Below are positions 1,898 to 37,718 of a stretch of DNA of 64,000 nucleotides, piece by piece; positions within the stretch are counted from its first letter, which is position 1, and each line of letters starts with the position of its first letter. Origin of the DNA: Alphaproteobacteria bacterium (GTDB lineage: Bacteria; Myxococcota_A; UBA796; CAJQPC01); NCBI GenBank assembly GCA_020632795.1, contig JACKEV010000010.1, positions 159,127 through 223,126 on the forward strand. The letters are read 5' to 3'. The position numbers and the translations under genes are program-made. The notes beneath the pieces were generated by a model that saw only the letters and a list, made by a program, of their open reading frames with translations, did not search any database and was not told where the DNA came from.

Positions 1898-3097
1898 TCA
1901 TACTCGGGCTCGAAGGGCCTCCCGGAGCGCCAGACGGCGTAGATCTGCGCTGCGAACTTCCGCCCGGCCGCGCCACCGGCTGTCCTGCTCGACTTGCCCC
2001 TGCTCGACCTTGCGCCTGTAGAAGGCGCGGACGGGCGCGTTGAACTGCCTCGCGGTGGTCGAGGCGAGGAGGATCTGGAGGCGCAGCATTCGGTTGCCCT
2101 TGCGCACCATGCGCGTGCTGTAGCCCCCGTCTCCGCTGCGCTTCGACCCGGGGTAGAGCCCGCAGTAGCCGATGAACTTGTCGACCGTCGCGAAGCGGTG
2201 GGGATCACCGGCTTCGGCCAGCAGGACGGCGAGCGTGAGCTCTCCGACCCCTGGGATGGTCAGCAGAACGTGGTCCTGGCGTGCTCTCTCATGCGTGCGC
2301 CTGGATGAGCGACTCCAGCTCCTGGACGTCCTCGTAGCAGCGACGGATCGCGCGGGTGAGTTGCACGACCGTCTGCTGCACGATCCGCGACCAGTGTGGC
2401 TCAAGCGTCATGGTGGCCAGCTCCTGCAGCCGCTGGAGGTGTTTCAGGCGAACTCGGCCCCCTGGGAGTCCGCAGCTCCGCCAGGTCGGCCTCGGTGGCC
2501 GCCAGCAGCCGCTCAGGCGAAGGGAAGGCCTCCAAGAGCGTGCTCAGCCACAAGGGGTCTTCCCCGAAACCGGCGCGTGAAGCCGGGGAGCAGCTCGGCC
2601 AAGCGCCGACGAAGGCGGTTGAGCAGGCGCGTCCGCTCCTCCACCAGTGGCGGCGCCGCGTCCGCACTGCCATCGACAGCTCGCCGCAAGCGCTCCGGCA
2701 AGGCCTTCGGCGCTGGCCGGAACGTCCGCAGGTACTGCGCGATGTCGTTGGAGTCCGTGCGGTCGCTGCGAGAGCCCCGCAGCTTCCAGCTTCGTGAACT
2801 GCTTGATGGTCAGGGGTTGAGCTCCACCACCGCCACGCCGCTGCCCTCCAGCGCCACCAGCAGTGGCCGATGGTAGGCCGCTGTCGACTCGCAGCCCAGC
2901 AGCACCGGGCCCTCCAAGGGCTCGATGCTCCTCAGCAGCTCGGCAAAACCCTGCGGGTCGTTCGCGAGCGTCTGGCGGGGCCTCACGGGGCTCCCCGTGG
3001 CGTCGACGTAGACGACGTCAAGCTTCCTGCTGGCGACATCGACGCCGACGAAGGTGCGGGCGGTCTGCTGGACCGCGCTCACGCTCTCCTCGGTCAT
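1898..3097 (-). pseudogene. IS110-family transposase, disrupted (N-terminal DEDD domain 2810..3097, frameshifted middle, C-terminal Transposase_20 domain 1898..2404)
   Basis: N-terminal fragment has FVGVDVASRKLDVVYVD...; C-terminal fragment has IPGVGELTLAVLLAEAGDPHRFATVDKFIGYCGLYPGSKRSGD. Both are hallmarks of IS110 transposases, but they sit on at least three separate minus-strand frames (2810..3097, 2401..2673 / 2513..2701, 1898..2404). Paralogous to the intact copy at 14466..15713. Confidence 0.55.
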
Positions 3098-4286: not shown

Positions 4287-4580
4287 TTGGGGTTCGCGGG
4301 GCTGGCGGGGCTGGTCCAGCAGGAGATGGGGCGGGAGCTGGTGTCGGGGGAGCTGTTCCTGTTCGTGTCGAGACGGAGGACGTCCGCGAAGATCCTGCAC
4401 TGGGACGGGACGGGGCTGTGTCTGTACAGCAAGCGACTGGCCGGCCGGCGGCGATTCGCGGCGCTGTGGGAGCGCGCGGAGCGCGGTCAGGTGCGGCTGA
4501 CGATGGCCGAGCTGGCGCTGTTCCTGGAGGGGGCAGAGGTCAGCCGGCGGCGAGCGTCAAGGTTGTCGATCATTCGCTGA
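4287..4580 (+). CDS. tnpB: IS66 Orf2/TnpB-like accessory protein, N-terminally truncated (TTG start)
   Basis: GELFLFVSRRRTSAKILHWDGTGLCLYSKRLAGRRRF matches the IS66 TnpB core (LF.F.NRR.D..K.L.WDG.G..L..KRLE.G.F). Confidence 0.5.
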   Translation: MGFAGLAGLVQQEMGRELVSGELFLFVSRRRTSAKILHWDGTGLCLYSKRLAGRRRFAALWERAERGQVRLTMAELALFLEGAEVSRRRASRLSIIR

Positions 4581-7097: not shown

Positions 7098-8039
7098 ATG
7101 GAGACCGTCGCCCGCCTCATCGCCAGCGGCCTGCTGGAGCGGGAGGACCCCCGGCCCAGCACCCGCACGATGCACGATCTCCTGGACCTCTGGCTGGAAC
7201 AGCAGGAGCGCCGCCGGGACCTGAGCCCACAGTCCGTCAAGAACTACACCCGCTGCTGCCGTCACGCCGTCGCGTGGCTGGGAGAGCTTCGCCCCGACGA
7301 CCTCGGGCGGCTGACCCTGGAGCGCTACCGCAACCAGCGCCTGGGCGAGGGTGCGGCCCCCCGAACCATCCAGCAGGAGTTGATCGTACTGCGCATGGCA
7401 TGGCGCTGGGCCGGGGACGCCGGGCTCATCCCGGATCGGGCGCTTCCTTCGGTGAAGATCAAGGTCCAGGGCTATGTGGCGAATCACCACACGCCGAGCC
7501 CTGCCGACGCCGCGCGGGTCATCGCGCTGCTCGACGGGGAGGATCAGCTCGCCGCGCAGCTCCTGGCCACCACTGGGGCGCGCGTCTCCGAGGTCACCGG
7601 CCTCAAGCGCTGTGACGTCGACCCCCGGACCCGGCGGGTCACCCTGCGCGGCAAGACCGGGGCCCGGGTCTTCCCCCTGCCGGAGCCGATCTTCGCGCTG
7701 GTGGCCGATCGGATCGACGGCTCGGCGCGGCCGCTGTTCGACTGGACGACCTCTGTGCCGGGATCGCGGGTTCGTGTGGCGCTCCAGAAGGCGTGTCTGC
7801 GCCTCGGGGTGCCCGTGTTCACGCCCCACGGGCTGCGTCGCATGGTCGTGGACCAGATGATCCGCTCGGGCGTAGACGTCTCGACGGCGGCCAGCCTGAC
7901 CGGGCACAGCGTAGAGGTTATGCTGCGGCACTACCGCAAGGTCAGCGAGGCCGACCGGGTCGAGGCGGTGGCGAAGGCGGGGCTGGGGGTGCTGGGCGGC
8001 AAGGTCATCGAGGGGCCGTGGGCGAAGGCTGGGGGGTAA
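7098..8039 (+). CDS. tyrosine site-specific integrase copy B (intact catalytic domain: R..HxLRR..Y)
   Basis: GARVSEV, TPHGLRRMVVDQMIRSG and LRHYRKV motifs are present. The conserved N-terminal arm (KNRPKPAEVGEVRLSAIKGPRSDGAWYWRARR) lies in-frame upstream, from 6927, with no canonical start codon; it is AAG where copy A has ATG. The true start is therefore ambiguous (6927 to 7098). Confidence 0.7.
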   Translation: METVARLIASGLLEREDPRPSTRTMHDLLDLWLEQQERRRDLSPQSVKNYTRCCRHAVAWLGELRPDDLGRLTLERYRNQRLGEGAAPRTIQQELIVLRMAWRWAGDAGLIPDRALPSVKIKVQGYVANHHTPSPADAARVIALLDGEDQLAAQLLATTGARVSEVTGLKRCDVDPRTRRVTLRGKTGARVFPLPEPIFALVADRIDGSARPLFDWTTSVPGSRVRVALQKACLRLGVPVFTPHGLRRMVVDQMIRSGVDVSTAASLTGHSVEVMLRHYRKVSEADRVEAVAKAGLGVLGGKVIEGPWAKAGG

Positions 8040-10319: not shown

Positions 10320-10655
10320 ATGCCGCTTGTCACAATCTGTCCGCTCGTGCCATATAGAAGTGGAGCCCCGTCGGGTCCCTCACGCTCGTTGACATCCATA
10401 GAGAAGAACGCTCGACTCAACGGTCCGCTCCGGCACCGCGAATCTGCGAACCTCTCCCACTCCGCGATATGGCAGGTTCAGCCGTTGAGGTTCTCTGAGG
10501 TCTCATACAGCGCGATAGTTCTAATCAAAGGTGATGTATCAACGACTCCGGTTTCCCGAGGTGTTGGCTGCGTCAAGAGCTGGAGAAGCCCGGAGGTCGA
10601 GGTTCGCAAAACCTGTTGGATTCGACCGGCGATATCAGGTAGTTGGAGAGCAAGG
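10320..10655 (+). promoter_or_regulatory. putative CRISPR leader for array 1 (AT-richer than surroundings)
   Basis: GC content drops locally immediately upstream of the first, consensus, repeat. The degenerate repeats are at the far (3') end of the array, so the leader is expected on this side. Confidence 0.35.
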
Positions 10656-10991
10656 GTCCCGGGACCCCGCCCGTCACGGAGGGCATTGAAACGACTGTAT
10701 TGTTTGTCCACAGCAAAAAATGCCTGCCTCCGTCCCGGGACCCCGCCCGTCACGGAGGGCATTGAAACACGTCGTCCTGCCAGGCAGTGATTCGTACGAT
10801 CCAGGTCCCGGGACCCCGCCCGTCACGGAGGGCATTGAAACCTCCTTGTAGAGTGGATGTTTTCTGAATTGAGGACCAGGTCCCGGGACCCTGCCCGTCA
10901 CAGAGGGCATTGAAACTGTGGCGTAATACGCCACGGGGATTTCGAAGATGTCCTGTCCCGGGACCCTGCCCGTCACAGAGGGCATTGAAAG
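10656..10991 (+). CRISPR. CRISPR array 1: five 37-bp repeats GTCCCGGGACCCCGCCCGTCACGGAGGGCATTGAAAC and four spacers (36-39 bp); no adjacent cas genes
   Basis: Repeats start at about 10656, 10732, 10805, 10880 and 10955. The first three are identical. Repeat 4 has two substitutions, and repeat 5 shares these plus a terminal G in place of C. The 3' end ATTGAAAC/G matches the Cas6-generated 8-nt crRNA 5' handle, fixing + strand orientation. Spacers are unique and AT-richer than the genome. Confidence 0.9.
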
Positions 10992-11016: not shown

Positions 11017-13020
11017 CAGGCCACTTTCCCCTCCGAGTCGCCAACCTGCGCCTCCAGGCGTCACAGTGACAGTAGAATCGCCCATAAAATCGGTATCTTT
11101 CGCGCCCTCCCCAGAATTGGACACAGACCTCCCCCAACCCCCAGCGTCCGTCGAAGGAGACGCGGTCAGGCCGCGTGGGCGGCAGGCGGGCCGCGCCCCA
11201 TGAGGCCCTCGACGAAGGCGCGTGCGTCGAGTTTGGAGACCCAGGCGCGGGCGTGCTGGAGCAGGGCGAGGAGGTTCAGGCGGATGAGCCAGAAGGACCA
11301 GCGACGGTGGCGGGCGGCTTCGAGCTTGAGCTTGCTCTTCTTCTCGTCGTTGGAGCGCTCGCAGCCGGTGCGCTTCTTGTAGAGCTTGCGGTATCCGGCG
11401 CTGTTCCGTGCGATGAGGGGGAACAGGCGGGGGTTGTCGTGGACGTTCATGTTGAGGACGGGGCCCCACTTCGTCTCGGGTTGACAGCGCCAGTCGGGCT
11501 CGCCGTCCGGGGCCAGGGGACAGCGTTCGAGCTTGTTGGCCTTGACGGGGCAGAGGAAGACGCTCTGGTTGGGCCCGCCGGTGCCCCAGGCGGCCATCTC
11601 GGCGCCGGCCTGGCACAGTGGGATGGCGCGAGGGCTCAGGGCGATGTCGGGTCGGGTGGGGTGGACGGCGGGCACGTCGGAGCGCAGCGGGATGACCGGC
11701 CGCATGCCCCAATCCATCGCGTGGGCGTGGTTGGCGCGGGCGTCGTGGCCGGCATCGGCGATGAAGACGGAGAGGCCGAAGCGGTGGCGCTCATCACGGA
11801 GGAGCTTGCCGAGCTGCTCGATGGCCAGGGCACAAGCGCGGTGCTCGCTGTGATCCGCAGGGTCCAGGCGGACCAACAGCGGGAGGTCGTGTCCGTCGAC
11901 CGGGGCGAGCAGCTCGTAGGAGTGGTAGCCGAAATCGTAGCGGTCTCGGTAGGCGTCGTAGCCGCGCTTCGCGTCGGGGTCGGACCAGACCCGATCGTGG
12001 TCGCAGCGGGCGGTCCGGGGACACGAACAGACGCGGCGACCGTGGCCGTTGGCGGCGGTGACCAGCGGGCTGGCGTCCCCTGCGACGATGAGGGCCTCGA
12101 TGTCCTCCAGCAGCCCACGGCGCACAGAGACCTCCACCCCGCAGGTCCACAGGATGCGGGTCAGGCGGCCCAGCAGGTCGTCGGGGTTGCCGGAGCTCCG
12201 GCGGGCCCGGAGCGCGTCGACCAGCTTCGCGGTGGCGTTCTTCTCCGGCTTGCCCTTGCGGCGCTCCCAGCCGGGCTGGGCGCTCTCGGCGCGCCGCCGC
12301 TCCAGCGCGCTGGGGCGAATGGCGACCCCCTCCCGAAGTGGCCCGTCGTGAAGACGGTGGAGGAAGCTGTAGAACGCGCCGATGCTCGGGGACGGGGCGC
12401 GGCGGCGTCCGGGCTCGGGTTCGGCCAGGCCGGCGATGGCCTGGAGCACCGGCTCGGCGCGCAGCCGATGGCCCCAGGCGTTGAGCGCGGGCTCCCCGAC
12501 CAGCGGACCGAGCAGCAGGCAACGCAGCATGACCACCGGGTCCCAGGGCTCGCCGCCGCGGGGGCTCGGCGCGTAGCAGGCCTCCAGGACCGGCCGCGCG
12601 GGCTCCAGCTCGAGGAACCACAGCGTCGTCAACGCGGACGCGTAGAGCCGCAGCTTGTCGCGAAGGTCCGGGCGCCCAGCGAGGGCCTGAAGGCGGGAGA
12701 GGACGAGGTCGTGATAGCATGAGGATGGAGGGGGCGTCATCGTTCTTTTTCGATTTAATTAGGTTTGAAGCGGAGAATTCCGCTGTTTCGATGATCGCCC
12801 CCTTTTCACGCATCGCCAAGCTCAAGGCGGGCTGGGGCGGGCTCGGTGCAGACTCGGTGCCGGCGAGGCGCGCGAATGGTAATCGGTGGGGTCATGATGG
12901 GCCGATGCGGGTTGAGGCGGATGTGACGGGTGGGGTGAAGGGGAGGAATGTCAGGGGGTTGGGATTGGTGATCGGGGTCTTGAAACGTAGTAGCAGCTGT
13001 AAAGACCTGTCGTATCGTAC
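11000..13020 (-). mobile_element. insertion sequence carrying the IS4/IS5-type transposase, inserted between the two CRISPR arrays (boundaries approximate)
   Basis: A relic array-1 repeat at 13021-13048 on the far side of the transposase gene implies insertion into a formerly continuous array. Terminal IRs and target-site duplications could not be defined by eye. Confidence 0.35.
11166..12740 (-). CDS. IS4/IS5-superfamily DDE transposase (524 aa)
   Basis: C-terminal Y-(2)-R-(3)-E-(6)-K signature is present (YKKRTGCERSNDEKK). The Asp residues of the DDE motif lie in VFIADAGHD and DFGYHSYELLAP contexts. Uninterrupted ORF with good GC3. Confidence 0.7.
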   Translation of the reverse strand: MTPPPSSCYHDLVLSRLQALAGRPDLRDKLRLYASALTTLWFLELEPARPVLEACYAPSPRGGEPWDPVVMLRCLLLGPLVGEPALNAWGHRLRAEPVLQAIAGLAEPEPGRRRAPSPSIGAFYSFLHRLHDGPLREGVAIRPSALERRRAESAQPGWERRKGKPEKNATAKLVDALRARRSSGNPDDLLGRLTRILWTCGVEVSVRRGLLEDIEALIVAGDASPLVTAANGHGRRVCSCPRTARCDHDRVWSDPDAKRGYDAYRDRYDFGYHSYELLAPVDGHDLPLLVRLDPADHSEHRACALAIEQLGKLLRDERHRFGLSVFIADAGHDARANHAHAMDWGMRPVIPLRSDVPAVHPTRPDIALSPRAIPLCQAGAEMAAWGTGGPNQSVFLCPVKANKLERCPLAPDGEPDWRCQPETKWGPVLNMNVHDNPRLFPLIARNSAGYRKLYKKRTGCERSNDEKKSKLKLEAARHRRWSFWLIRLNLLALLQHARAWVSKLDARAFVEGLMGRGPPAAHAA

Positions 13021-13048
13021 GTCCCGGGACCCTGCCCGTCACGGAGGG
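13021..13048 (+). repeat. relic fragment of the array-1 CRISPR repeat (28/28 match to the degenerate array-1 variant GTCCCGGGACCCTGCCCGTCACGGAGGG)
   Basis: Direct sequence match. It lies 14 bp upstream of the first array-2 repeat. Confidence 0.6.
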
Positions 13049-13062
13049 AGGCAAGCCCGGCT

Positions 13063-13389
13063 ATCCCTCTCCCCGCTCGTCGGGGAGCCTCATTGAAGCG
13101 GATTCAGCCTGGATGCGGCGGCGCTCCCGGACGACGTCCCTCTCCCCTCTCGTCGGGGAGCCTCATTGAAGCGTCATCAGTCGTCGTCGGACAGCGCGGC
13201 CTTGGGGGTCCCTCTCCCCGCTCGTCGGGGAGCCTCATTGAAGCGGATTCAGCCTGGATGCGGCGGCGCTCCCGGACGACGTCCCTCTCCCCGCTCGTCG
13301 GGGAGCCTCATTGAAGCTTCACGATGGCGTCGAAGGCGGGGTGGTAGGAGGTGTCCCTCTCCCCGCTCGTCGGGGAGAGAGAACGGGCG
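13063..13389 (+). CRISPR. CRISPR array 2: 37-bp repeats GTCCCTCTCCCCGCTCGTCGGGGAGCCTCATTGAAGC (4 full plus 1 truncated terminal repeat), 4 spacers of 35-36 bp with spacer 1 identical to spacer 3
   Basis: Repeats start at about 13063, 13136, 13208, 13281 and 13353; the last diverges after 25 nt. There is an internal CTCCCC/GGGGAG stem. Both arrays share the 5' GTCCC and the 3' CATTGAA(A/G)C. Spacers 13100-13135 and 13245-13280 are identical. Confidence 0.85.
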
Positions 13390-14399
13390 TTAATTTTCGT
13401 GGCAGATCGTAACGGCGCTTCAAGGAAGCTCCCCGATGAGCGAGGAGCCTCACGGGACCTACTCCTCCCCCACCAGCCCCGCCGCGATCCTCTCGGCCAG
13501 CTCATCCAGCTCCGGTTCGCCGAGCTGCATCAGCACGCTGAGCAGGTAGCCGTCCGCGGTGAGGTACGCCCACCGCACGGCAGCCCGGAGCTGACGCAGC
13601 AGCCGCCTACGCCGCCGCCGCCGCGCCCTCGCATCAAGCGCGACCACCGTGGACCTCCTGCCGCCCCTGGCGGCGCTCCTGGCGCAGCGCGGTGAGCGCC
13701 GGGTGCTGGACCAGGCGCAGCACATCGGCCGCCAGCATGGCGACCCCGAGCGCGGCGGCCAGGGGGCTCTCAGCCCCGGCGAGGGCGCGCAGGGACTCCT
13801 TCAAGGCGAGGCCGTGCTCGTCCCAGGCGGTGTTCCAGGCGGCGCGGCGTTCGGATGCGGTCCTCATCGGTGGTGTCTCCTCTCCGGGTGGGCTACAGGC
13901 AGTCCATCGTCTTCGGACGGTCTCTCGGTGTTGGGAGGAATCCCCCTCCCCCTCTCGGCGCCGACTGCGGCCCCATCGCCTCGTGGCGGTGGGGTCGAAG
14001 CGCTTCAGGGGGCACGGCGAAGGGGCGGCCGGCGCGGCTGAGCGCGGCCGGCGGGCGCAGGAGGCCCTCGGGGTGGTCCTCATGTAGCCCCCAGGATGTC
14101 AAGGTCCCGCTTGTCGAGCATCGTCTCATCGCTGCAGGGGGAGGGGTTCGGGGAAGGGGGGCACGCCCCCCTCCCCGTACGCAGCGAGTGCATGGCTGCG
14201 AACCGGTGTGGGTGTCGTGGGCCGAGCCTCGCGACGAGGATGTTCGGGGGAGTTCCCTCCCGCCTCGCCCTCATACGTTCAGGGTCGTCAACCGAGGCGG
14301 CCGCGCCCTCAAGATCCTTCATCCAGGCGAGGAGGGAACCGGGAGGTGACTTGTTCTCACTCTCGAGGTCGCTGCCAGGGCGCCTCCAAGGGTCGTCAG

Positions 14400-15800
14400 C
14401 CTCCCTCCCGGGTCCCCGAACGGGTCCATGTCGCAGCAGGCACGCAGTGGCCTCCAGCGGGTGGCTCAGCTCATGATCCTCGCTGCGTCGAAGAAGGCAC
14501 CGTCGCGCACCAGGGCGTGCATCACACGCACGAGTCGGCAGGCGTTGGCGAGGACGGCCTTCTTGGGGATGACCTTGGCGTCGAGCATGCGGGCGCGTGG
14601 TCCTGCCAGCGCATCCATGCCCATGCGCAGCGAGGCCAGGTACAGCACCTGGCGCAGGTAGCGTCGGCCCCTGCGGCTGATGATGCGGCTGGGCTCCACG
14701 TCCTCTGCGGGCTTGTTGCCAGAGGAGACCTCGACCAGATCGAGGCCCGCCATGGACATCAGCTGACGACTGTGCCGGTAGCCCCGCAGATCGCCGAACT
14801 CGCCCAGCAGGATGGCGGTCGTCGTGGCTCCAAGACGTGGGATCGACAGGAGGTTGGGGGCGTAGTCCACCTGCTCCAGGCGGCCCACCATCTCGGCCTC
14901 GATGGCGCACCTGCTGGCGGTGAGCTGGTCCAACTCGTCGAGGTGCTGCATCAGCACAGCGCGGTGCCCCCTCGCCCCATCGCGGATCCCCACCGAGCGC
15001 TTCGCGGCCGCTCGGAGCGCGTCCACCCGCTCCTCGCCGAGGTTGTGGTGACTGGCCTTGTGCAGTCCCTTGATCAGCGTGCGGCGGCGCGCCGCGAGGA
15101 CCTCCTCCGGCGTCGGCACCGTCCGCAGCCACCACAGGCAGGCCGGCGAGTCCATCTTGCCGAACAGCTTCGGCAGCTCCGGGAACAGCACGTCCACATG
15201 CCGGTGGACCCGGTTGAGCACCTGGCTCCGACGCTTCACCATCTGCTCCCGCGTGCGACCCAACAACCGCAGCTCCGCAAACACGCCCTGCGGCGGACGC
15301 CACGGCTTCGCCTTGCCCTGACGGCAAAGATCCGCCACCAGCGCCGCGTCCTTCGCGTCCGTCTTCCGCCACGTCCCGTCGTACAGCTCCTTCGCTCGCT
15401 TCGTATGCAACGGCTGCACCTGGAACAGCTTCACCCCCCGCTCCGACAGCCAGCGTGCCAGCGCCTCGCCGTAGTGGCCCGTCGGCTCGAACCCCACCAC
15501 GAACTCCGTGTACCGCTCCACCTCCCGAACCGCCTCCTCGCAGTACCTCCACAGCGCGCTGAACCCCTCGACGTCGTTCGTGAATCTCTCCGGCTTCGCC
15601 ATCCAACCGTCGTCCAGTGCCGCCACCGCGACGTGATTCCACTTCGCTACGTCTACTCCGATCACCGCCTGGTGTGGCAGGGTAGGCTGCCAACGTCGTC
15701 GGCTCCTTCGCATGTGCTCTCCTCGGCCTCGTGGGCCTGCTCGTCGTTTTCCAACAAACAGGATCCCACTCCGGGAGGGCACATGCCTGGGGGGCTGGGC
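14400..15800 (-). mobile_element. IS110-family insertion sequence (boundaries approximate; IS110 elements lack classical terminal inverted repeats)
   Basis: A single transposase gene is flanked by short non-coding stretches. Ends are not defined. Confidence 0.3.
14466..15713 (-). CDS. IS110-family transposase (intact)
   Basis: N-terminal VIGVDVAKWNHVAVA (DEDD domain) and C-terminal LLSIPRLGATTTAILLGEFGDLRGYRHSRQLMSMAGLDLVEVSSGNK (Transposase_20) are present. The start was moved to the internal ATG at 15713 because a GGAGAG Shine-Dalgarno sits 5 nt upstream. The longer ORF begins at 15782. Confidence 0.75.
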   Translation of the reverse strand: MRRSRRRWQPTLPHQAVIGVDVAKWNHVAVAALDDGWMAKPERFTNDVEGFSALWRYCEEAVREVERYTEFVVGFEPTGHYGEALARWLSERGVKLFQVQPLHTKRAKELYDGTWRKTDAKDAALVADLCRQGKAKPWRPPQGVFAELRLLGRTREQMVKRRSQVLNRVHRHVDVLFPELPKLFGKMDSPACLWWLRTVPTPEEVLAARRRTLIKGLHKASHHNLGEERVDALRAAAKRSVGIRDGARGHRAVLMQHLDELDQLTASRCAIEAEMVGRLEQVDYAPNLLSIPRLGATTTAILLGEFGDLRGYRHSRQLMSMAGLDLVEVSSGNKPAEDVEPSRIISRRGRRYLRQVLYLASLRMGMDALAGPRARMLDAKVIPKKAVLANACRLVRVMHALVRDGAFFDAARIMS

Positions 15801-29710: not shown

Positions 29711-30958
29711 GTGATGCGCCCCTCCCGCCGCCGCCTGATGACCGGATCCGCTGCGCTGGCGGGCATGGGCCTGCTGCCACGCCCGGTCCGCGCGGCCCCC
29801 GCCGACCGCCGCTTCATCTTCATCGTGAACTTCGGCGGATGGGACGTCACCCGGGCCATCTACCCGGCCTTCGACAACCCGGTCGTGGACATGGAGCCGA
29901 ACGCCACCACGGCGCGGGCGGGCAACCTCGACTTCGTGGACCACCCCGAGCGGCCGATGGTGCGGGACTTCTTCCAGCAGTACCACGACCGCACGATGCT
30001 TCTGCACGGCATCCTGGTGCCCTCGGTGGCCCACATGGCCTGCCTGCGCCTCATCCTCACCGGTCGCATCGCCGGGCGGCCCGACTGGCCGGCGATCCTG
30101 GCCAGCGCCGTCGGCCAGCGCTTCGCCCTGCCGCACCTGGTCCTCTCCGGGCCCTCCTACCCCGCCGACCTGGGGGCCTGGGTCACCCGCACCGGCACCA
30201 GCGGCCAGCTCGAGGCCCTCATCACCGGGGACATCGCCGGGTGGAGCGACACGCCGGTCGACGAGACGGGGCTCTTGCTCCAGCAGGCCGAGCAGCGGGT
30301 CCTGGAGCGCCGGGTCCGCCGCGCGGTGGAGGCCGCCCCCGACCCCCGCAGCGCCGCGCTGCTCGACGCCTACGCCGCCAGCCTCGACCGCGCCGAGCAG
30401 CTCAAGCTCGCCAACGACGTCATCGACTGGGAGACCGGCGGGGACTTCGTCGGCGACTGCCTGCTGGCGGCGGACATGCTGGCCCAGGACCTCGCGTCGT
30501 GTGTGACCGTGACCTTCACCCACGACTGGGACACCCACGCGCTGAACGACATCTGGCAGAACTGGCACTGGCAGGGCCTGTTCGACGGCCTCAACGGGCT
30601 GATGCAGACGCTGGACAGCACCCCCGGCCACAGCACGCCCACCCTGGCCGAGGAGACCGTCGTGGTCGTGCTCAGCGAGATGGGCCGCACCCCGGGCCTG
30701 AACGCCGAGGAGGGCAAGGACCACTGGCCCTACACCTCGGCCATGCTCATCGGGCCGGGCTTCACCGGGGACCGGGTCGTGGGGGGCTACGACGACACCT
30801 TCTACGGCCGCCGCCTGGACCACGCCGCCGCCGAGGCCACCGACAGCGGCAGCGACGTCACCTGCGACTCCCTGGGCGCGACCCTGCTCGCCCTGGCCGA
30901 CGTCGACCCCGGGGACTTCCTGCCCGGGGCCAGCGCCATCGAGGGGGTGCTGACGTGA
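29711..30958 (+). CDS. DUF1501-family protein, Tat-exported
   Basis: Twin-arginine signal SRRRLMTGSAALAGMGL. Overall size and composition are typical of DUF1501 (sulfatase-like fold). It is the first gene of a three-gene overlapping operon. Confidence 0.65.
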   Translation: MMRPSRRRLMTGSAALAGMGLLPRPVRAAPADRRFIFIVNFGGWDVTRAIYPAFDNPVVDMEPNATTARAGNLDFVDHPERPMVRDFFQQYHDRTMLLHGILVPSVAHMACLRLILTGRIAGRPDWPAILASAVGQRFALPHLVLSGPSYPADLGAWVTRTGTSGQLEALITGDIAGWSDTPVDETGLLLQQAEQRVLERRVRRAVEAAPDPRSAALLDAYAASLDRAEQLKLANDVIDWETGGDFVGDCLLAADMLAQDLASCVTVTFTHDWDTHALNDIWQNWHWQGLFDGLNGLMQTLDSTPGHSTPTLAEETVVVVLSEMGRTPGLNAEEGKDHWPYTSAMLIGPGFTGDRVVGGYDDTFYGRRLDHAAAEATDSGSDVTCDSLGATLLALADVDPGDFLPGASAIEGVLT

Positions 30959-31869
30959 TCGGCCTCCTGCTCGCCCTGGGCTGCGCCGAGCCCCCGATCG
31001 CCGAGGACCCCGTCCCCGACCCGGTCGTCCCCGACGCCTACGACGTCGACGCCGAGGTCCCCGACCCCGGCGCCCCCCTCACCCCCGACCAGCTCGCCGA
31101 GGGCCTGGACCGGGTGGTCGCCCAGGTCCTGCGCACCGACCCCAGCCTCATGCACGACACCTGGGCCGGGCTGATGTTCGAGCACGCCGACCCCGACTGC
31201 CCCACCGTCGTCGAGCACAACGGCCAGGACCACTGGCGTGAGGACGGCTGCGTCACCGATGACGGCACCACCTTCCAGGGCTGGTCGCTGTACTTCCGCC
31301 TGTTCCAGCCCCAGATGACCACCGAGCCGCTGCACTACCTCAGCGTCGGCTGGCTCAGCGGCCAGGCCACCATCACGACCGCAGCCGGGGTCGAGCTGAT
31401 CAACTACGGCGACGTGCTGCACGAGCGCTACCTGGACCCCGACGACCAGGAGACCGACGCCGGCTTCGTGTTCGGCGACTTCTGGTTCAGCGGCCTGGAC
31501 GGCCAGGGCACCTGGCTCCAGGACGGCGTGACGATGGAGATGTACTTCACCCTCGTCGACCACCACGCCCAGGCCCGCAGCACCGCCCTCGACCTGCAGA
31601 TGGCCTACCTGCCCGACCCCGTGCCCGCCGCCATCTTCGAGGACTTCCTGCTCACCGACGAGGCCGGCGCCTGCGGGCTGGAGCCCGACGGCCGGGTGTG
31701 GGCCCGGGACGACGCCGGGCGCTGGTATGAGGTCATCTTCGAGGGCGCCGCCGCCACCGGCGACGCCTGCGACGGCTGCGGCGAGGCCTGGCTGAACGAC
31801 CAGAGCGTCGGCGAGGTCTGCGTGGACTGGACCCCACTCCTGTTCACCTGGAGCCGAGAGCCCCGATGA
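30955..31869 (+). CDS. lipoprotein (304 aa), Cys-rich C-terminal region
   Basis: GTG start overlaps the DUF1501 stop (GTGA). VIGLLLALGCAEPP lipobox. Confidence 0.5.
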   Translation: MIGLLLALGCAEPPIAEDPVPDPVVPDAYDVDAEVPDPGAPLTPDQLAEGLDRVVAQVLRTDPSLMHDTWAGLMFEHADPDCPTVVEHNGQDHWREDGCVTDDGTTFQGWSLYFRLFQPQMTTEPLHYLSVGWLSGQATITTAAGVELINYGDVLHERYLDPDDQETDAGFVFGDFWFSGLDGQGTWLQDGVTMEMYFTLVDHHAQARSTALDLQMAYLPDPVPAAIFEDFLLTDEAGACGLEPDGRVWARDDAGRWYEVIFEGAAATGDACDGCGEAWLNDQSVGEVCVDWTPLLFTWSREPR

Positions 31870-33425
31870 TGGTGCTCCTGCTCCTGTCCTGCTCCGACGG
31901 CCCGGTCGAGGCCCCCGCGCCCACCGTCGACCCGGTCGTCGCCCTCACCCGACTCAGCCTGGACCTGCGCGGGGTGCGCCCCACCCTGGACGAGTACGCG
32001 GCCGTCGGCGACGACCGCTCCGCCCTTGAGCCCGTGGTCGACGACTGGATGGCCGACCCCCGCTTCGGCCTGCGCTACGCCGACCTGATGGCCCCGGTCT
32101 ATCGCACCCCGGTCACCGAGACCGACATCGAGGAGTTCACCTACACCCTGGACGACCCCACCCGCTTCCTGGAGGGCATGGGCGCCGAGCCCCTGCGCAT
32201 CCTGGCCCGGATCGCCCAGGAGGACCTGCCCTGGACCGAGCTGGTCACCGGCGACTGGACGATGGTCACCGAGGTGATGGCCGAGAGCTACCCCACCGAC
32301 TACCCCGAGAGCGCCACCGGCTGGCAGCTCGCCCACTACACCGACGACCGCCCCGCCGCCGGCGTCCTCTCCACGAACGGGCTGTGGTGGCGCTACAGCT
32401 CCACCCTGGCCAACGCCAACCGGGGCCGGGCCAACGCGGTCAGCCGCATCCTGCTGTGCCGGGACTACCTCGACCAGCAGATCGAGGGCGACCGCGACCT
32501 CAACCTGCTGGACGAGGAGGCCGTCGCGAACGCCCTGGCCACCAGCGACGCCTGCGTGACCTGCCACGCCAGCCTCGACCCGATGGCGGCGGTGTTCTGG
32601 GGCTTCTACAACCACTTCGGCTTCTCCCCCACCGAGCAGACCCACTACCACCCCGAGCGGGAGCGCCTCTGGGCCGAGTACACCGGCGTGGGCCCGGCCT
32701 ACCAGGGCCAGCCCGTCGACGGCCTCGCCGACCTGGGGCGGGCCATCGCCCGGGACCCCCGCTACGCCGAGTGCGCGGTGAAGCGCACCTTCGAGCAGCT
32801 CCTCCAGAGGCCGGCCACCCTGGACGACACCGCCACCCTGACCGAGCACCGCCAGGCCTTCCTGGAGGGCGGGCTGACCGTGCGGGCCCTGGTGCGCGCG
32901 GTGGTCACCAGCCCGGACTACCTCACCCCGCCCACCGACGACCCGGCGGCCAGCCCCTGGAAGCTGGTCACCCCCTGGCAGTACGCCGCCCAGGTCGAGG
33001 ACCTCACCGGCTTCCGCTTCGCGGTGGGCGGCTACGACCTGTTCAACACCGACACCTTCGGGGTGCGCGGCCTGGCCGGGGACGTGGGCGCGGACTTCTC
33101 CAGCCGCAGCGGGGTGGAGCCCACCGCCACGATGGCCCTGGTCATGGAGCGGGTGGCCGAGGCCGCCGCCTGGTACGCCGTCGACCAGCCCGATCAGAAC
33201 CTCATCACCGAGGTCCCGGTGGACGCGGTGCCCAGCGAGGCCGACGCCATCGCCCAGCTTGAGGCCCTGCACCTCCGCGTGCTCGGCCAGCAGGGCGACA
33301 CGGAAGACGTCGCGCGGACCTGGGCGCTGTGGCAGCAGCTCCACGCCCTGTCGGGCTCGCCGCGGGACGCGTGGGCCGGGGTGCTGGCGTACCTGATGCG
33401 GCACCCGGGGTTCGTGGTGTATTGA
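31866..33425 (+). CDS. DUF1549/DUF1553-like (PSD1/PSCyt-type) protein, usual partner of DUF1501
   Basis: RLSLDLRGVRPTLDEYAAVGDD...DPRFGLRYADLM matches the DUF1549 N-terminal motif. A CVTCHASLDP cysteine/histidine motif is present in the C-terminal half. ATG overlaps the upstream stop (ATGA). Confidence 0.55.
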   Translation: MMVLLLLSCSDGPVEAPAPTVDPVVALTRLSLDLRGVRPTLDEYAAVGDDRSALEPVVDDWMADPRFGLRYADLMAPVYRTPVTETDIEEFTYTLDDPTRFLEGMGAEPLRILARIAQEDLPWTELVTGDWTMVTEVMAESYPTDYPESATGWQLAHYTDDRPAAGVLSTNGLWWRYSSTLANANRGRANAVSRILLCRDYLDQQIEGDRDLNLLDEEAVANALATSDACVTCHASLDPMAAVFWGFYNHFGFSPTEQTHYHPERERLWAEYTGVGPAYQGQPVDGLADLGRAIARDPRYAECAVKRTFEQLLQRPATLDDTATLTEHRQAFLEGGLTVRALVRAVVTSPDYLTPPTDDPAASPWKLVTPWQYAAQVEDLTGFRFAVGGYDLFNTDTFGVRGLAGDVGADFSSRSGVEPTATMALVMERVAEAAAWYAVDQPDQNLITEVPVDAVPSEADAIAQLEALHLRVLGQQGDTEDVARTWALWQQLHALSGSPRDAWAGVLAYLMRHPGFVVY

Positions 33426-33433
33426 CGCGCGCC

Positions 33434-33598
33434 AGTACCCCCACCCCGAAGTTCCTACCGAGTACCGGTAGAACCTGGTGGGTCCTCCGTGTCGTCCGGC
33501 GAACCGCCGCGTGTCGGGACACGTCAGGCGAGCCGGGCGGCGCGGAGGGCGTGCCAGGGGCAGCGCAAACTCGGTAGGAACTTCGGGGTGGGGGTACT
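33434..33598. repeat. 30-bp perfect inverted repeat pair (AGTACCCCCACCCCGAAGTTCCTACCGAGT) flanking a 105-bp spacer, between convergent genes; arms contain an FRT-like GAAGTTCCTAC core
   Basis: Arms at 33434-33463 and 33569-33598 are exact reverse complements, read from the sequence. Confidence 0.7.
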
Positions 33599-34586
33599 AC
33601 CCCTCGTCGTCCTTCTTCCGCCGCCGGATCCGCATCCGCCCCTCGTTCTGGGAGAACCCGAACAGGTCGTCCAGCCCTCCGTCGGGCCCCGGCGGCCTGC
33701 GGGCGACCGGGGGCTCGGGCGCCGCGGGCGTGGCCGTCGACTCCTCCGGGTCCGCGTTGGTGATCACGGTCTCCTGGAGCTTGGGGGGGCGCAGCACCTT
33801 CGGCCCGGTGGCCTGGGTGGGCCCGCCCATGCGCAGCCGCCCCCCCTGGCGCTTCTGGGTGGCCTCGGGCATCGGCGGGCGGCGGTCGATCGTCGGGGCG
33901 TTGTCGCTGGCCTCGGGCGGGGCCGACACCACCGGGGGCCTGCGGTTGCCCCGGGTCGGGGTGACGCTGGGGGGGCTGGGTGGCGGCGGCCGGCGGCTGA
34001 ACTCCTTGGGCGGCGGCACGTCCCCCGCAGGCTTGGGCGCGAGCTTGGGCGCGGGCCGGGGCGCGGCCTTGGGGGCCCGGGGCGCGTCGGGGAGCTTGCG
34101 CTTCTGCTTGCGCGCGGGCTCCTTGGGCTTCGCGTGGGGGGCGGGCTGGCGCCGCTCCCGGAAGCGCAGGTTCACCGGCCCCAGGGAGAGGGGTCGCTCC
34201 TGGGCGTCGGGGTCGTAGGGGTCGGCCAGGCCCATGCGGTCGAACAGCCGGGAGCGCCGCTCGGACCCCGGGCCCGACACCCGGCGGCTGTACACCCGGT
34301 CGTAGACCGACTCCCCCGCGAGGGCGCGCGGGGCCTGCTCGGCGATGACCTCGGAGGCCAGCGGCTCGTCCTCTTCAGCAGGCTCAGGCTCGACGACCGC
34401 GTCGTCATCGGCATCGTGGGGTTCCAACGTCCCAGGATCCGCGGGGGGCGGGGCCAGCGGAGGCGCGGCCGCCTCGAACCCCAGGTCCGGCATCGCCCGG
34501 GGGGGCGCGTCGTCCCAGCCGGAGCCCTCGAAGCCCAGGTCCGGCATCATTCCTCGGCGGCGGGTGTCGTCACGATCGTCGCTCAT
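33597..34586 (-). CDS. Pro/Ala-rich low-complexity protein (329 aa), basic C-terminus
   Basis: Long ORF with good GC3, 10 bp downstream of the SRPBCC gene stop. Repeated PDLGFE motif at the N-terminus. No recognisable domain. Confidence 0.4.
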   Translation of the reverse strand: MSDDRDDTRRRGMMPDLGFEGSGWDDAPPRAMPDLGFEAAAPPLAPPPADPGTLEPHDADDDAVVEPEPAEEDEPLASEVIAEQAPRALAGESVYDRVYSRRVSGPGSERRSRLFDRMGLADPYDPDAQERPLSLGPVNLRFRERRQPAPHAKPKEPARKQKRKLPDAPRAPKAAPRPAPKLAPKPAGDVPPPKEFSRRPPPPSPPSVTPTRGNRRPPVVSAPPEASDNAPTIDRRPPMPEATQKRQGGRLRMGGPTQATGPKVLRPPKLQETVITNADPEESTATPAAPEPPVARRPPGPDGGLDDLFGFSQNEGRMRIRRRKKDDEG

Positions 34587-34596
34587 CGTGCCTATC

Positions 34597-35184
34597 CTAC
34601 CCTGCCCCCGCCGCGCGGGCCGCGATCAGGGTCACCATCGTGGGCAGGCCCCGGTCGGCGGCCTTGCGGTGGATGGGCGAGGGCAGCCACCACGCGGTCT
34701 CCACCGAGGCCCCGTAGAGCACCAGGGTGCGCTGCGGCGCGTCGGCCCACGGGCGCGTCTGCCAGAAGCCCGTCGCGCGGGCCATCGGGGAGGTCCCCCG
34801 GGGCACCATCTCCCAGGTCATGTAGCCCTCGGCCTGGCGCAGGCGGCTCTCCACCGCGTAGCGGGTCACCACGCCCTTGGTGGTCAGCTCCATGCCCCAG
34901 CGCCACACCGCGACCCCGTCGACGGGGGCACCTGCGGTCTCCAGCCAGGACGCGGTGACGTAGGGGAGGAAGTCGACGTAGGCGTCGAAGTCGGTGATCG
35001 TCGCCCACACCCGCTGGGGCGGGGCGTCCGCCAGGCAGACCGAGATCCCCGCCGAGCCCGCCTCCCCCTGCTCGGCGCGGTGGACCACCCCGCCCTGGGC
35101 CAGGCTGTCCCGCTCCTCGGCGGTGAAGGTGAACGTCGGGGGGGCCACGTCCCAGGACGGGCGCTTGCGGCGGCGGGGCCTCAC
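34597..35184 (-). CDS. SRPBCC-superfamily (START/polyketide-cyclase-like) protein
   Basis: WATITDFDAYVDFLPYV...TRYAVESRL...GFWQTRPW pattern. GTG start overlaps the M16 peptidase stop (GTGA). Confidence 0.5.
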   Translation of the reverse strand: MRPRRRKRPSWDVAPPTFTFTAEERDSLAQGGVVHRAEQGEAGSAGISVCLADAPPQRVWATITDFDAYVDFLPYVTASWLETAGAPVDGVAVWRWGMELTTKGVVTRYAVESRLRQAEGYMTWEMVPRGTSPMARATGFWQTRPWADAPQRTLVLYGASVETAWWLPSPIHRKAADRGLPTMVTLIAARAAGAG

Positions 35185-37718
35185 CGGGTGGACTCCGGGC
35201 CGACCACGACCTCCACCCCGCCGCAGGCCGCCAGGCGGGCGGACAGGGCGCGGCGCACGTCGTCGGCGGTCACCGCGAGGGTGCGCGCGGCGGCCCGCTC
35301 CCGGGCGAACCGGGCGTCGCGGCCGTAGCGCTCCCACAGGGCCAGCTCCAGGGCGCGGCCCGCGCTGCGCTGCCGGTACATGGCCAGCGCCCCCAGGGTC
35401 ACCTGCTTGACCCGCTCCAGCTCCTCGGCGGTGGGGCCCTCGGCGGCCAGGCGCTCGACCTCCTCGCGCAGGCCCGCCACCCCCTGGGCCACCTGCTCGG
35501 GGTCCATCGACATGCGGACCTCGAAGGCGCCGCGATCCCAGCCGTCGTCGGACTCGGCGGAGACGTCGTAGGCCAGGCCGCGCCGATCCCGCAGCGCCAT
35601 GAACAGCCGGCCGCCCTGCCCCCCCAGCACCTGCGCGGCCTGGGCCAGCGCCTCAGCGTCGGGGTCGGAGAAGCGCGCGCCCGGCCAGGCGAGCACGATG
35701 TGGGCCTGCTCGCGGTCCGCAGCGAGCTGCGCCCGGAGCCGCTTGGGCGAGAACCGGGCCCGGGGCCGCCGCCGAAGCCGCGCCGGCCCGGGGGGCAGCC
35801 CGGCGAGGGCCCGCTCCAGGCGGTGCATCACCGCGTCGGGGTCCACCGCCCCGGCCACCGCCACCACGAGGTTGTCGGCGGTGATGAGCCCCCGGTGCAG
35901 GCGGCGCAGCGCCGGGACGTCCAGCCGCTGGAGGGAGTCGGCGGTGCCCCGGGCCGGCAGCCCGTAGGGGTGGGCGCCGTAGAGCAGGCGGGCGGCCTCG
36001 TGGTCGGCCACGGTGGAGGGCTGATCCCGCAGCAGCCGCTCGTCCTCCCGCAGCTCGGCGAGCACCCGCTCGGCCTCCCCCTGGTCGAAGCGGGGCGCGC
36101 AGAGCACGGCACCGACCAGATCCACCGCGTCGTCGATGCGCCCGGCGGGCAGGTCCAGCTCCACCCCCAGGGTGTTCCGCCCGGCCAGCCCGGAGAGGGT
36201 GGCCCCCCGGTCGTCGAGGTACTCGGCCAGCTCCCGCGCGGAGAGGTCCCAGGCCCCCGCCGTGCGGGACCACAGCTCGCAGAGGCCTGCGCTGCCCGCC
36301 CGCTCCACGAGCTGCCCGCCCAGGCCCACCGCGCGGATGGCGGCCACCTGGGTGTGCTCCAGAGGCTCGACCAGCAGGGTCAGACCGCTGTCCAGCACGC
36401 GACGATGCACCGCGGGTCGGGCTTTCGGAAGCGCGGGCCGCCGAGACAGCGACGCGGCCTGCCGCACGGCGGCCGGCTCGGCTTCGGCCTCGGGCAGCAG
36501 CGCGCCCAGGGTGCAGCGCTCGGGGCGCAGGTACTGCGCGGCCACCCGGCGCACGTCGGCGGCGGTGACCGCCTCCAGCGCCGCCCGGTAGCGCTGCGCG
36601 GCGGCAGGGTCTCCGAAGAACGCCTCGTACCAGGCGTTCTCGTGGGCCCGGCCGTCCACGGTCTCGGCGGTGAACAGGCGCAGGGAGAGGATCTGGGTGC
36701 GGGCGCGGTGGAGCTGGGCCAGGGGCACGCCGTGGGCGCGGGCCCGGTCGACCTGCGCGGCCAGGGCGCGGGCGGCCTGCAGGGTGCGGCCCCCCAGCGG
36801 GGTGCAGCCCAGCAGCACCAGACCGTCGTCGTGCTCGGTCTCGCAGACCCCCCAGGTACTGGTGACCAGGCCCTCGCCGAGCTGGAGCGCGGCCCCCAGC
36901 ACGCTGGCGCTGCCCTCCCCCAGCGCGGTGATGAGCAGGTCGAGGGCGGCGGCGTCGGGGTGGTCGTGGGGCACGCCGCGGAACGCCAGCTCCAGCATGG
37001 GCTCCTCGAACCGGCCGGGCACGATGATGCTGCGGGCGCGGGTCTGGGGGGGCTCGACCGGGCGCACCGGGGCGGGGCCCACCGGGGGCCGGGGCGGCAG
37101 GAGCCGCTCGCAGAGGGCGATGAGCGCGTCGGCGTCGACGTCGCCGGAGACCGAGACGATCAGGTTCTCGGGGTGGTAGACCCGCTCGTAGAAGGCGCGC
37201 AGGGCCTCGGGGGCCATGCCGCCCACCGAGCGGGTGGTGCCGATGACCGGGCGGCCGAAGGGGTGGCGCTGGAAGGCGCGGGCGGCGACCGCCTCGCCCA
37301 GGCAGCGGGCCGGGTCGTCGCGGCCGGAGCGGATCTCGTCGAGGATGACCTGGCGCTCCAGCTCGATCTCCTGGGGATCGAAGCGGCTGTGGAGGGCCAT
37401 GTCCACCAGCACGTCCAGGGCGCCCTGCCAGCTCGGGGTGGGCACCGTGGCGTGGAAGACGGTCTGGTCGTAGGTGGTGTAGGCGTTGATGTCGCCGCCG
37501 ACGGCCTCGATCGCGGTGGCGATCTCGCCCACCCCATGGCGCTCGGTGCCCTTGAAGAGCATGTGCTCCACGAAGTGGGCGGCGCCGTGCTGGCCCTCCA
37601 GCTCGTCACAGGAGCCGGAGCGGACCCAGAGGTAGACCGCGGTGACCGCCGAGCCAGGGACCGGATCGAGCACCAGCCGTGCGCCGGAGCCGAGGGTGCA
37701 GCGCAAGAACCTCTCCAC
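35181..37718 (-). CDS. M16-family (insulinase/pitrilysin-like) zinc peptidase, tandem two-unit architecture (846 aa)
   Basis: HFVEHMLFKGT inverted zincin motif (HxxEH) in the N-terminal unit, followed by a second M16 unit. Start set at GTG 37718; the longer ORF to 38165 is Gly/Arg-rich and overlaps hemW. Confidence 0.7.
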   Translation of the reverse strand: MERFLRCTLGSGARLVLDPVPGSAVTAVYLWVRSGSCDELEGQHGAAHFVEHMLFKGTERHGVGEIATAIEAVGGDINAYTTYDQTVFHATVPTPSWQGALDVLVDMALHSRFDPQEIELERQVILDEIRSGRDDPARCLGEAVAARAFQRHPFGRPVIGTTRSVGGMAPEALRAFYERVYHPENLIVSVSGDVDADALIALCERLLPPRPPVGPAPVRPVEPPQTRARSIIVPGRFEEPMLELAFRGVPHDHPDAAALDLLITALGEGSASVLGAALQLGEGLVTSTWGVCETEHDDGLVLLGCTPLGGRTLQAARALAAQVDRARAHGVPLAQLHRARTQILSLRLFTAETVDGRAHENAWYEAFFGDPAAAQRYRAALEAVTAADVRRVAAQYLRPERCTLGALLPEAEAEPAAVRQAASLSRRPALPKARPAVHRRVLDSGLTLLVEPLEHTQVAAIRAVGLGGQLVERAGSAGLCELWSRTAGAWDLSARELAEYLDDRGATLSGLAGRNTLGVELDLPAGRIDDAVDLVGAVLCAPRFDQGEAERVLAELREDERLLRDQPSTVADHEAARLLYGAHPYGLPARGTADSLQRLDVPALRRLHRGLITADNLVVAVAGAVDPDAVMHRLERALAGLPPGPARLRRRPRARFSPKRLRAQLAADREQAHIVLAWPGARFSDPDAEALAQAAQVLGGQGGRLFMALRDRRGLAYDVSAESDDGWDRGAFEVRMSMDPEQVAQGVAGLREEVERLAAEGPTAEELERVKQVTLGALAMYRQRSAGRALELALWERYGRDARFARERAAARTLAVTADDVRRALSARLAACGGVEVVVGPESTR

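Follow-up and report, generated by a model that had tools for sequence, protein, structure and literature searches.

The 171-bp gap between two convergent genes in the 64-kb stretch of DNA analysed here (the window) is filled, essentially in full, by a 165-bp palindrome with perfect 30-nt terminal arms. By analogy with published elements, it is most likely of the MITE type, comparable to the Correia, ERIC and QMITE elements, and would then be a mobile-element relic of an ordinary kind. Our preferred reading, which we put at somewhat under an even chance, is that this non-coding 165-bp MITE-type relic now acts as a shared 3' barrier for its two neighbours, with the stronger effect on the plus-strand transcript. 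The element is genuine and belongs to a known general class of features; it holds no surprise for the specialist and opens no long-standing question.

Structure and setting of the palindrome

The left arm (33434-33463, AGTACCCCCACCCCGAAGTTCCTACCGAGT) and the right arm (33569-33598) are exact reverse complements of 30 nt each, separated by 105 bp, as the first-pass annotation had described. When up to three mismatches are allowed, the 30-nt arm has two matches only in the 64-kb window, and 100 shuffles yielded none. The palindrome extends imperfectly through the 105-bp interior (33464-33568): positions 33424-33500 and 33532-33608 are 75% complementary over 77 ungapped nucleotides, and the centre of symmetry of the whole element is located at 33516/33517. 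Since the interior continues the inverted repeat, the whole 165 bp constitute one palindrome, i.e., one hairpin of about 70 bp; no other inverted repeat in the window comes close to it in length. An apical hairpin on the plus strand, CGTGTC-GG-GACACG (33510-33523), sits exactly at the centre of symmetry; this small hairpin had also been noticed before, and it is indeed present. Just inside the left arm, positions 33466-33483 form a degenerate inverted copy of the inner left arm (CGGTAGAACCTGGTGGGT versus ACCCCGAAGTTCCTACCG, 72%) and hence a direct copy of the inner right arm. This repeat is statistically weak; it may be a subterminal repeat or else pair locally into an alternative hairpin. The 10-mer CGGTAGGAAC, considered as a repeated protein-binding site, shows no enrichment elsewhere in the window.

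An independent short-read contig (L053, Logan SRR12358676_1256606) is 100% identical to positions 33538-37568 of the window, which independently confirms the right arm together with its outer flank and 31 nt of the interior.

The pairing differs sharply between the arms and the interior. All outer pairs are Watson-Crick (30/30), while the 37 ungapped interior positions beside the arms comprise 22 Watson-Crick pairs, seven G·U pairs on the plus strand, one G·U pair on the minus strand and seven mismatches. At the interior rate of non-Watson-Crick positions (15/37), perfect arms of 30/30 would arise by chance with a probability of ~2e-7. This sharp break implies that the arms and the core are under different constraints, as are the terminal repeats and the core of a MITE. 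The 7:1 excess of G·U pairs on the plus strand (one-sided binomial p = 0.035) is a hint of RNA-level selection on that strand; it is suggestive, not decisive.

Structurally, positions 33424-33608 (185 nt) fold as a single hairpin of about 70 bp, with a folding energy of -141.7 kcal/mol (z -12.4) as plus-strand RNA and -126 kcal/mol (z -9.1) as minus-strand RNA; the plus-strand range for the element is -136.6 to -141.7 kcal/mol. Folded as single-stranded DNA, the 165-nt element reaches -72.2 kcal/mol (z -10.3). The interior alone gives -71.3 kcal/mol (z -6.3) as plus-strand RNA versus -49.7 kcal/mol (z -2.2) as minus-strand RNA, i.e., it folds well on the plus strand only, because of the seven G·U pairs on this strand versus one on the other. 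It is the most structured 120-nt stretch on the plus strand of the window and falls outside the top 15 on the minus strand.

Both neighbours present their 3' ends to the element, and the convergent intergenic setting reported earlier is thus correct. On the plus strand, the upstream gene (31866-33425, MCB9762292.1, GC3 0.98) encodes a protein of 519 aa with the PSCyt2/DUF1549 and PSD2/DUF1585 domains. This gene closes a DUF1501-u318-PSCyt2 cluster and ends in a TGA stop 8 nt before the left arm. On the minus strand, the convergent gene p329 (33597-34586, MCB9762293.1, GC3 0.95) encodes a proline-rich protein of 329 aa with no Pfam family and is the last gene of an M16 peptidase - SRPBCC - p329 operon. 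The element overlaps p329 by 2 nt, as the last two nucleotides of the right arm belong to its TAG stop (33597-33599). The C-terminus of p329 (GLDDLFGFSQNEGRMRIRRRKK...) is conserved in homologues, and the position of this stop is therefore native. The other convergent gene pairs of the window either overlap or leave a gap of 2 bp and have neither hairpin nor spacer, which indicates that the genome needs no spacer or hairpin at such positions.

The closest relatives of the flanking genes have at most 56% and at most 43% amino-acid identity, and the nearest relatives are Myxococcota MAGs (at most 56% amino-acid identity). The GenBank label of the assembly is Alphaproteobacteria, yet all close homologues as well as the synteny point to Myxococcota. 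For the 90%-identity clusters of MCB9762292.1 and MCB9762293.1, the representatives on record are unrelated peptides of 47-54 aa. In these relatives, the genes follow each other on one strand in the order M16 peptidase - SRPBCC - p329 - u318 - PSCyt2 - DUF1501, and in seven relatives PSCyt2 is directly followed by a DUF1501-type gene. In the window, by contrast, M16 - SRPBCC - p329 on the minus strand faces DUF1501 - u318 - PSCyt2 on the plus strand. From this difference in gene order it follows that the element lies exactly at a lineage-specific rearrangement junction, which it thereby marks. Compared with the related loci L026 and L027, the DUF1501 - u318 - PSCyt2 cluster (29711-33425) is permuted and inverted relative to the M16 - SRPBCC - p329 operon; the RadSAM - GrpE - DnaK side of the synteny is kept. 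No inverted repeat of at least 18 nt is present at the corresponding junctions in six related loci, and no counterpart of the element was found at the equivalent junction in relatives.

Candidate origin and role of the element

Prokaryotic MITEs are shorter than 500 bp, have repeats of 4-30 bp and occur in copy numbers down to one (PMC10969869). The element is short (165 bp) and non-coding; the ORFs across it have a GC3 of 0.55-0.65 versus at least 0.95 in real genes, and its translations have no homologues. Its terminal inverted repeats, 30 nt long or 26 nt if the AGTA/TACT ends are derived from the target, fall in the ~4-30 bp range of MITEs. It is intergenic, and its transcript is predicted to form a stable stem-loop. 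Because size, repeat length, non-coding nature, intergenic site and stable fold all match the published description, we favour the MITE reading. The base composition is divided. MITEs are relatively AT-rich, and with 60% GC the arms belong to the lowest 10% of 30-mers (left arm 60% versus 72% for the window), but the core has 74% GC, which is genome-like and counts against this reading. The G·U excess on the plus strand also counts against it, as such an RNA-level hint is not expected for a recent insertion.

The ends of the element read AG-TA-CCCCC...GGGGG-TA-CT, with TA dinucleotides at 33436-33437 and 33595-33596. In a genome where TA is rare (8.4 per kb), this is compatible with a TA target-site duplication in an AGTACT target, in which case the putative mobile unit would span 33438-33594 and be 157 bp long with 26-bp repeats, its 26-nt end being CCCCCACCCCGAAGTTCCTACCGAGT. 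The TA pair is not diagnostic, since TA is self-complementary and such a duplication is inseparable from a plain 30-bp inverted repeat; no direct repeat is found outside 33434/33598. Removing positions 33438-33596 in silico leaves TGA-CGCGCGCCAGTA-CTA, i.e., both stops remain intact and 12 nt apart. The element may have arrived by transposition into a gap of ~12 bp, possibly at the TA of an AGTACT site, and would have been mobilised by a transposase encoded elsewhere. Under this scenario, the perfect arms would reflect the need for intact transposase-binding ends and not RNA pairing.

In the 64-kb window, no cognate IS with matching ends is found: no further sequence within three mismatches of the arm exists, and blastn matches do not exceed 12 nt. 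The window carries IS110, IS66 and IS4/IS1182-like transposases, which shows that the genome is IS-active, but none of them has ends that resemble the arm.

Searches for further copies were extended well beyond this region. By pattern search, blastn-short and nhmmer, no second copy was detected in the window. An exact 20-mer of the element is absent from 185,579 species-representative genomes; the public collections searched exclude the source genome. An 18-mer in metagenome contigs and 16-17-mers in viral contigs are chance matches only, with unrelated flanks, several of them being small CCCCACCC-GAAG-GGTGGGG terminator hairpins, and blastn against plasmids and phages returned GC-rich noise only. 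At the protein level, a six-frame translation of the element has no match among 5.8 billion protein clusters, nor does one frame among 1.84 billion representative proteins. No called ORF in those protein collections therefore crosses a near-identical copy.

Among known systems, the closest in architecture are the Correia elements (CREE) of Neisseria, which are non-coding, ~105-158 bp long, carry 26-bp terminal inverted repeats and are flanked by TA (PMC2649163; PMC10969869). CREE are often co-transcribed with their neighbours, and they fold into a hairpin whose repeat duplex is bound or cut by RNase III (PMC2649163; PMC10969869). The element resembles them with its 157-165 bp, its repeats of 26-30 bp and a TA at both ends. 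However, there is no sequence similarity, CREE exist in more than 100 copies while a single one is found here (window and collections searched), and the IHF sites and promoters that CREE carry were not detected in the element. The host is in addition distant and very GC-rich.

ERIC/IRU of Enterobacteriaceae and QMITE2 of Coxiella are imperfect palindromes over their whole length (~127-200 bp) in transcribed intergenic regions (PMC10969869). ERIC copies at the 3' ends of genes change the mRNA level, and in QMITE2, repeats of 23-29 bp surround a core of 113-145 bp, the transcript folding at about -113 kcal/mol (PMC10969869). The whole-length imperfect palindrome and the intergenic location are shared with the element. 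These families are, however, defined by multi-copy similarity, while only one copy and no sequence match to them is present here.

A third comparison concerns the REPs of E. coli, 3'-end palindromes that attenuate read-through and protect the upstream mRNA (bioRxiv 10.64898/2026.03.23.713779). REP units differ from the element in being ~35 bp long, often clustered and mobilised by RAYT (TnpA-REP), as opposed to one palindrome of 165 bp, and no RAYT-like match was found among the ORFs scanned.

We suggest that the relic could have been taken into use at the 3' ends of the two genes. Read-through transcripts from either gene would end in the hairpin. As a shared 3' barrier, it would pause or terminate RNA polymerase and block 3'-to-5' exonucleases, its 30-bp perfect duplex would be offered to RNase III, and the two convergent operons would be insulated from each other. 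The barrier effect should be stronger for the plus-strand (PSCyt2) transcript. The location of the hairpin, directly 3' of one stop (8 nt) and overlapping the other, is that of a terminator. It does not have the U-tract and the short stem (~5-20 bp) of an intrinsic terminator, as the tails are ACCCCUCGUCGUCC on the plus strand and GGCGCGCGUCAAUAC on the minus strand and the stem is ~70 bp long. On neither strand is there a T-tract 3' of the element; that the T-tract is missing had been recognised from the outset. No sigma-70-like promoter is found in 32500-34800, a region which includes the element.

Precedents for such a role exist. Correia elements, ERIC and 3'-end REPs are cut by RNase III or RNase E, block exonucleases, stabilise the upstream mRNA or attenuate read-through (PMC10969869; PMC2649163; bioRxiv 10.64898/2026.03.23.713779), and the presence of REPs between two convergent genes correlates with higher expression of the pair (bioRxiv 10.64898/2026.03.23.713779).

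If the element is a MITE, it adds a family of palindromic mobile elements to an uncultured Myxococcota-like lineage of very high GC content; a limited literature search found no paper describing such elements in this lineage. If it is a shared 3' hairpin, it is a clean natural case in which a single, inherently strand-asymmetric element insulates two convergent operons from each other. Of the three readings that the first-pass annotation offered, the MITE and the structured 3' hairpin have remained as the two leading explanations, while the third, a recombination or invertible site, is unlikely.

Alternative explanations

The strongest competing explanation is that the hairpin is native and non-mobile and arose in situ as a single-copy bidirectional terminator or a 3'-UTR stabiliser. 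We regard this as a possible but less probable origin. Its Watson-Crick outer stem would serve both transcripts, while the G·U-rich inner stem would stabilise the plus-strand PSCyt2 mRNA only. Several observations fit well with this. The hairpin fills the convergent intergenic gap exactly, and no other copy is seen in the window or the collections searched. The interior is strand-specific with its seven G·U pairs versus one, and since G·U pairs are not expected in a hairpin that has to work on either strand, the perfect outer stem fits as well. Further, the C/U-rich tail on the plus strand, ACCCCUCGUCGUCCUUCUUCC, resembles the tail of a small terminator-like hairpin located after an ORF that ends at 1482.

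However, a 70-bp stem is several times longer than that of any known intrinsic terminator and lacks the U-tract. U-tract-less "I-shaped" hairpin terminators have been proposed for high-GC bacteria; their stems measure ~10-20 bp, and whether they are active when the U-tract is missing is disputed. The element shares with them a GC-rich hairpin right after a stop, without U-tract, in a high-GC genome, but its stem of ~70 bp with 30 perfect outer pairs is different. Selection for pairing alone also leaves unexplained why arms with 30/30 pairs stand beside an interior that is 40% imperfect. In addition, the structure is not conserved 3' of the orthologous genes in relatives, and the nearly abutting convergent pairs elsewhere in the window do without it. 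A native hairpin explains the missing copies and the strand bias better than a MITE-like origin does, and the perfect arms, the length and the non-conservation worse.

It can also be speculated that the plus strand yields a structured RNA from the 3' UTR, for example a stable small RNA that is processed by RNase III or RNase E and has a function of its own. This would agree with the strong and strand-specific fold of the interior (z -6.3 versus -2.2), the top-scoring structured stretch on the plus strand of the window. We consider it unlikely, as a plain long helix lacks the loops and junctions typical of functional RNAs and no promoter-like site was found in 32500-34800. No Rfam family matches anywhere in the window at gathering thresholds, and with E-values up to 10 the region 33300-33750 gives only chance hairpin matches to miRNA models. 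No homologues of the element were found in which its pairs could be compared for covariation.

The third reading mentioned above is a site for site-specific recombination, either an inverton or an FRT-like site, at which the 105-bp core would be flipped by a recombinase. The perfect 30-bp inverted repeats with their 105-bp spacing would suit such a site, the window contains a tyrosine recombinase gene (7098-8039), and Correia elements are reported to invert (PMC10969869). The core is asymmetric, and a flip would swap the transcript that receives the stronger hairpin. Nevertheless, we find this very unlikely. The recombinase gene lies 25 kb away in an IS- and CRISPR-rich region with no arm-like sequence near it; it is the only tyrosine recombinase (Phage_integrase-family) ORF in the window and scores far below the Xer and IntI cut-offs. 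The ORFs within ~15 kb of the element are housekeeping genes. The element does not have two half-sites around a 6-8-bp spacer, no promoter was found in 32500-34800, both neighbours present their 3' ends, and an inversion of the near-palindromic core would change little.

The arms had been described as containing an FRT-like core, and 10 contiguous positions of the 13-bp Flp element do match, the 10-nt string GAAGTTCCTA being common to the element and the yeast Flp FRT site. The similarity does not survive a closer look at geometry and statistics. FRT consists of two 13-bp inverted elements around an 8-bp spacer, whereas the inverted GAAGTTCCTA motifs, at 33448-33457 and 33575-33584, match 10/13 positions and are 117 bp apart, versus the 6-8-bp spacer needed, and there is no Flp-like gene. 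With up to three mismatches, the Flp half-site occurs 15 times in the window, versus 11.2 expected, i.e., the likeness is at chance level. An FRT/Flp site was rejected on the wrong geometry, the chance-level match and the lack of a nearby recombinase.

A variant that we find scarcely credible is a flip-flop, strand-asymmetric transcript barrier, in which recombination between the 30-bp repeats would invert the core and thereby switch the strong hairpin between the two operons, making it an invertible terminator and not an invertible promoter. At k=31, the two orientations of the core have identical k-mer sets, since each arm measures 30 nt.

Equally improbable is an artefact of assembly or polishing, in the form of homogenised arms or a chimeric junction. 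At 30 nt, the inverted repeat is as long as k-1 in an assembly graph with k=31, and features of this kind break short-read assemblies built with that k. The element is also located at a synteny break, and in two samples the Logan contig stops within it, one k-mer (31 nt) beyond the right arm. Still, this contig is 100% identical to the window over the right arm, its outer flank and 31 nt of the core, both flanking genes are intact with native ends, and the asymmetry of the interior is unlike a fold-back product. The stop of the contig could be due to the repeat of k-1 = 30 nt, to a drop in coverage over the hairpin or to a polymorphism at 33537 (the G of a U·G pair).

An invertible promoter switch is also unlikely, given the lack of a sigma-70-like site in 32500-34800, the two 3' ends facing the element and the near-palindromic core. 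Three further candidates were tried and rejected. The long outer repeat resembles the a1/a2 repeats of a retron msr-msd, but a reverse transcriptase is lacking, the interior forms just one hairpin, both downstream directions are antisense to real genes and there is no Rfam match. The GTTRRRY/RYYYAAC core sites of an integron attC are absent, as is a cassette array, and a dif or replication-terminus site is dismissed since no GC-skew switch occurs across the window.

Other features of the window

A second long intergenic hairpin of ~95 nt is located at 1611-1707. It has a 19-bp outer stem with 95% pairing (ACGGCCAGGACCGCTGTGG / CCCCAGCGGTCCTGGCCGT) and an inner GC stem, and has no sequence relation to the 165-bp element. 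It lies downstream of the small terminator-like hairpin at ~1488-1512 that follows the ORF ending at 1482.

The first ~17 kb of the window are a mobile-element hot spot, with ORFs at 2810-3097(-), 4287-4580(+), 7098-8039(+), 11166-12740(-) and 14466-15782(-). The hot spot contains an IS110 transposase and an IS110 fragment, an IS66 TnpB and a generic tyrosine recombinase, as well as a DDE_Tnp_1 (IS4/IS1182-like) transposase between two CRISPR arrays.

In the first CRISPR array (10652-10991), five 37-nt repeats, GTCCCGGGACCC(C/T)GCCCGTCAC(G/A)GAGGGCATTGAAAC, recur every 73-76 nt. An incomplete sixth repeat is found at 13021-13050, ~2 kb off across an insert, and an IS-like insertion seems to split or border the array. 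Among the ORFs tried, neither Pfam nor NCBIfam recognised a cas gene. A second CRISPR-like array (13064-13452) is built from a different repeat of ~36 nt, GTCCCTCTCCCCGCTCGTCGGGGAGCCTCATTGAAGC, of which there are 5-6 copies at a period of 72-73, and one of its repeat-spacer units is duplicated (13064-13176 versus 13209-13321, 98%). The GC content falls to 0.51-0.60 around 10.7-11.1 kb and 12.7-12.85 kb.
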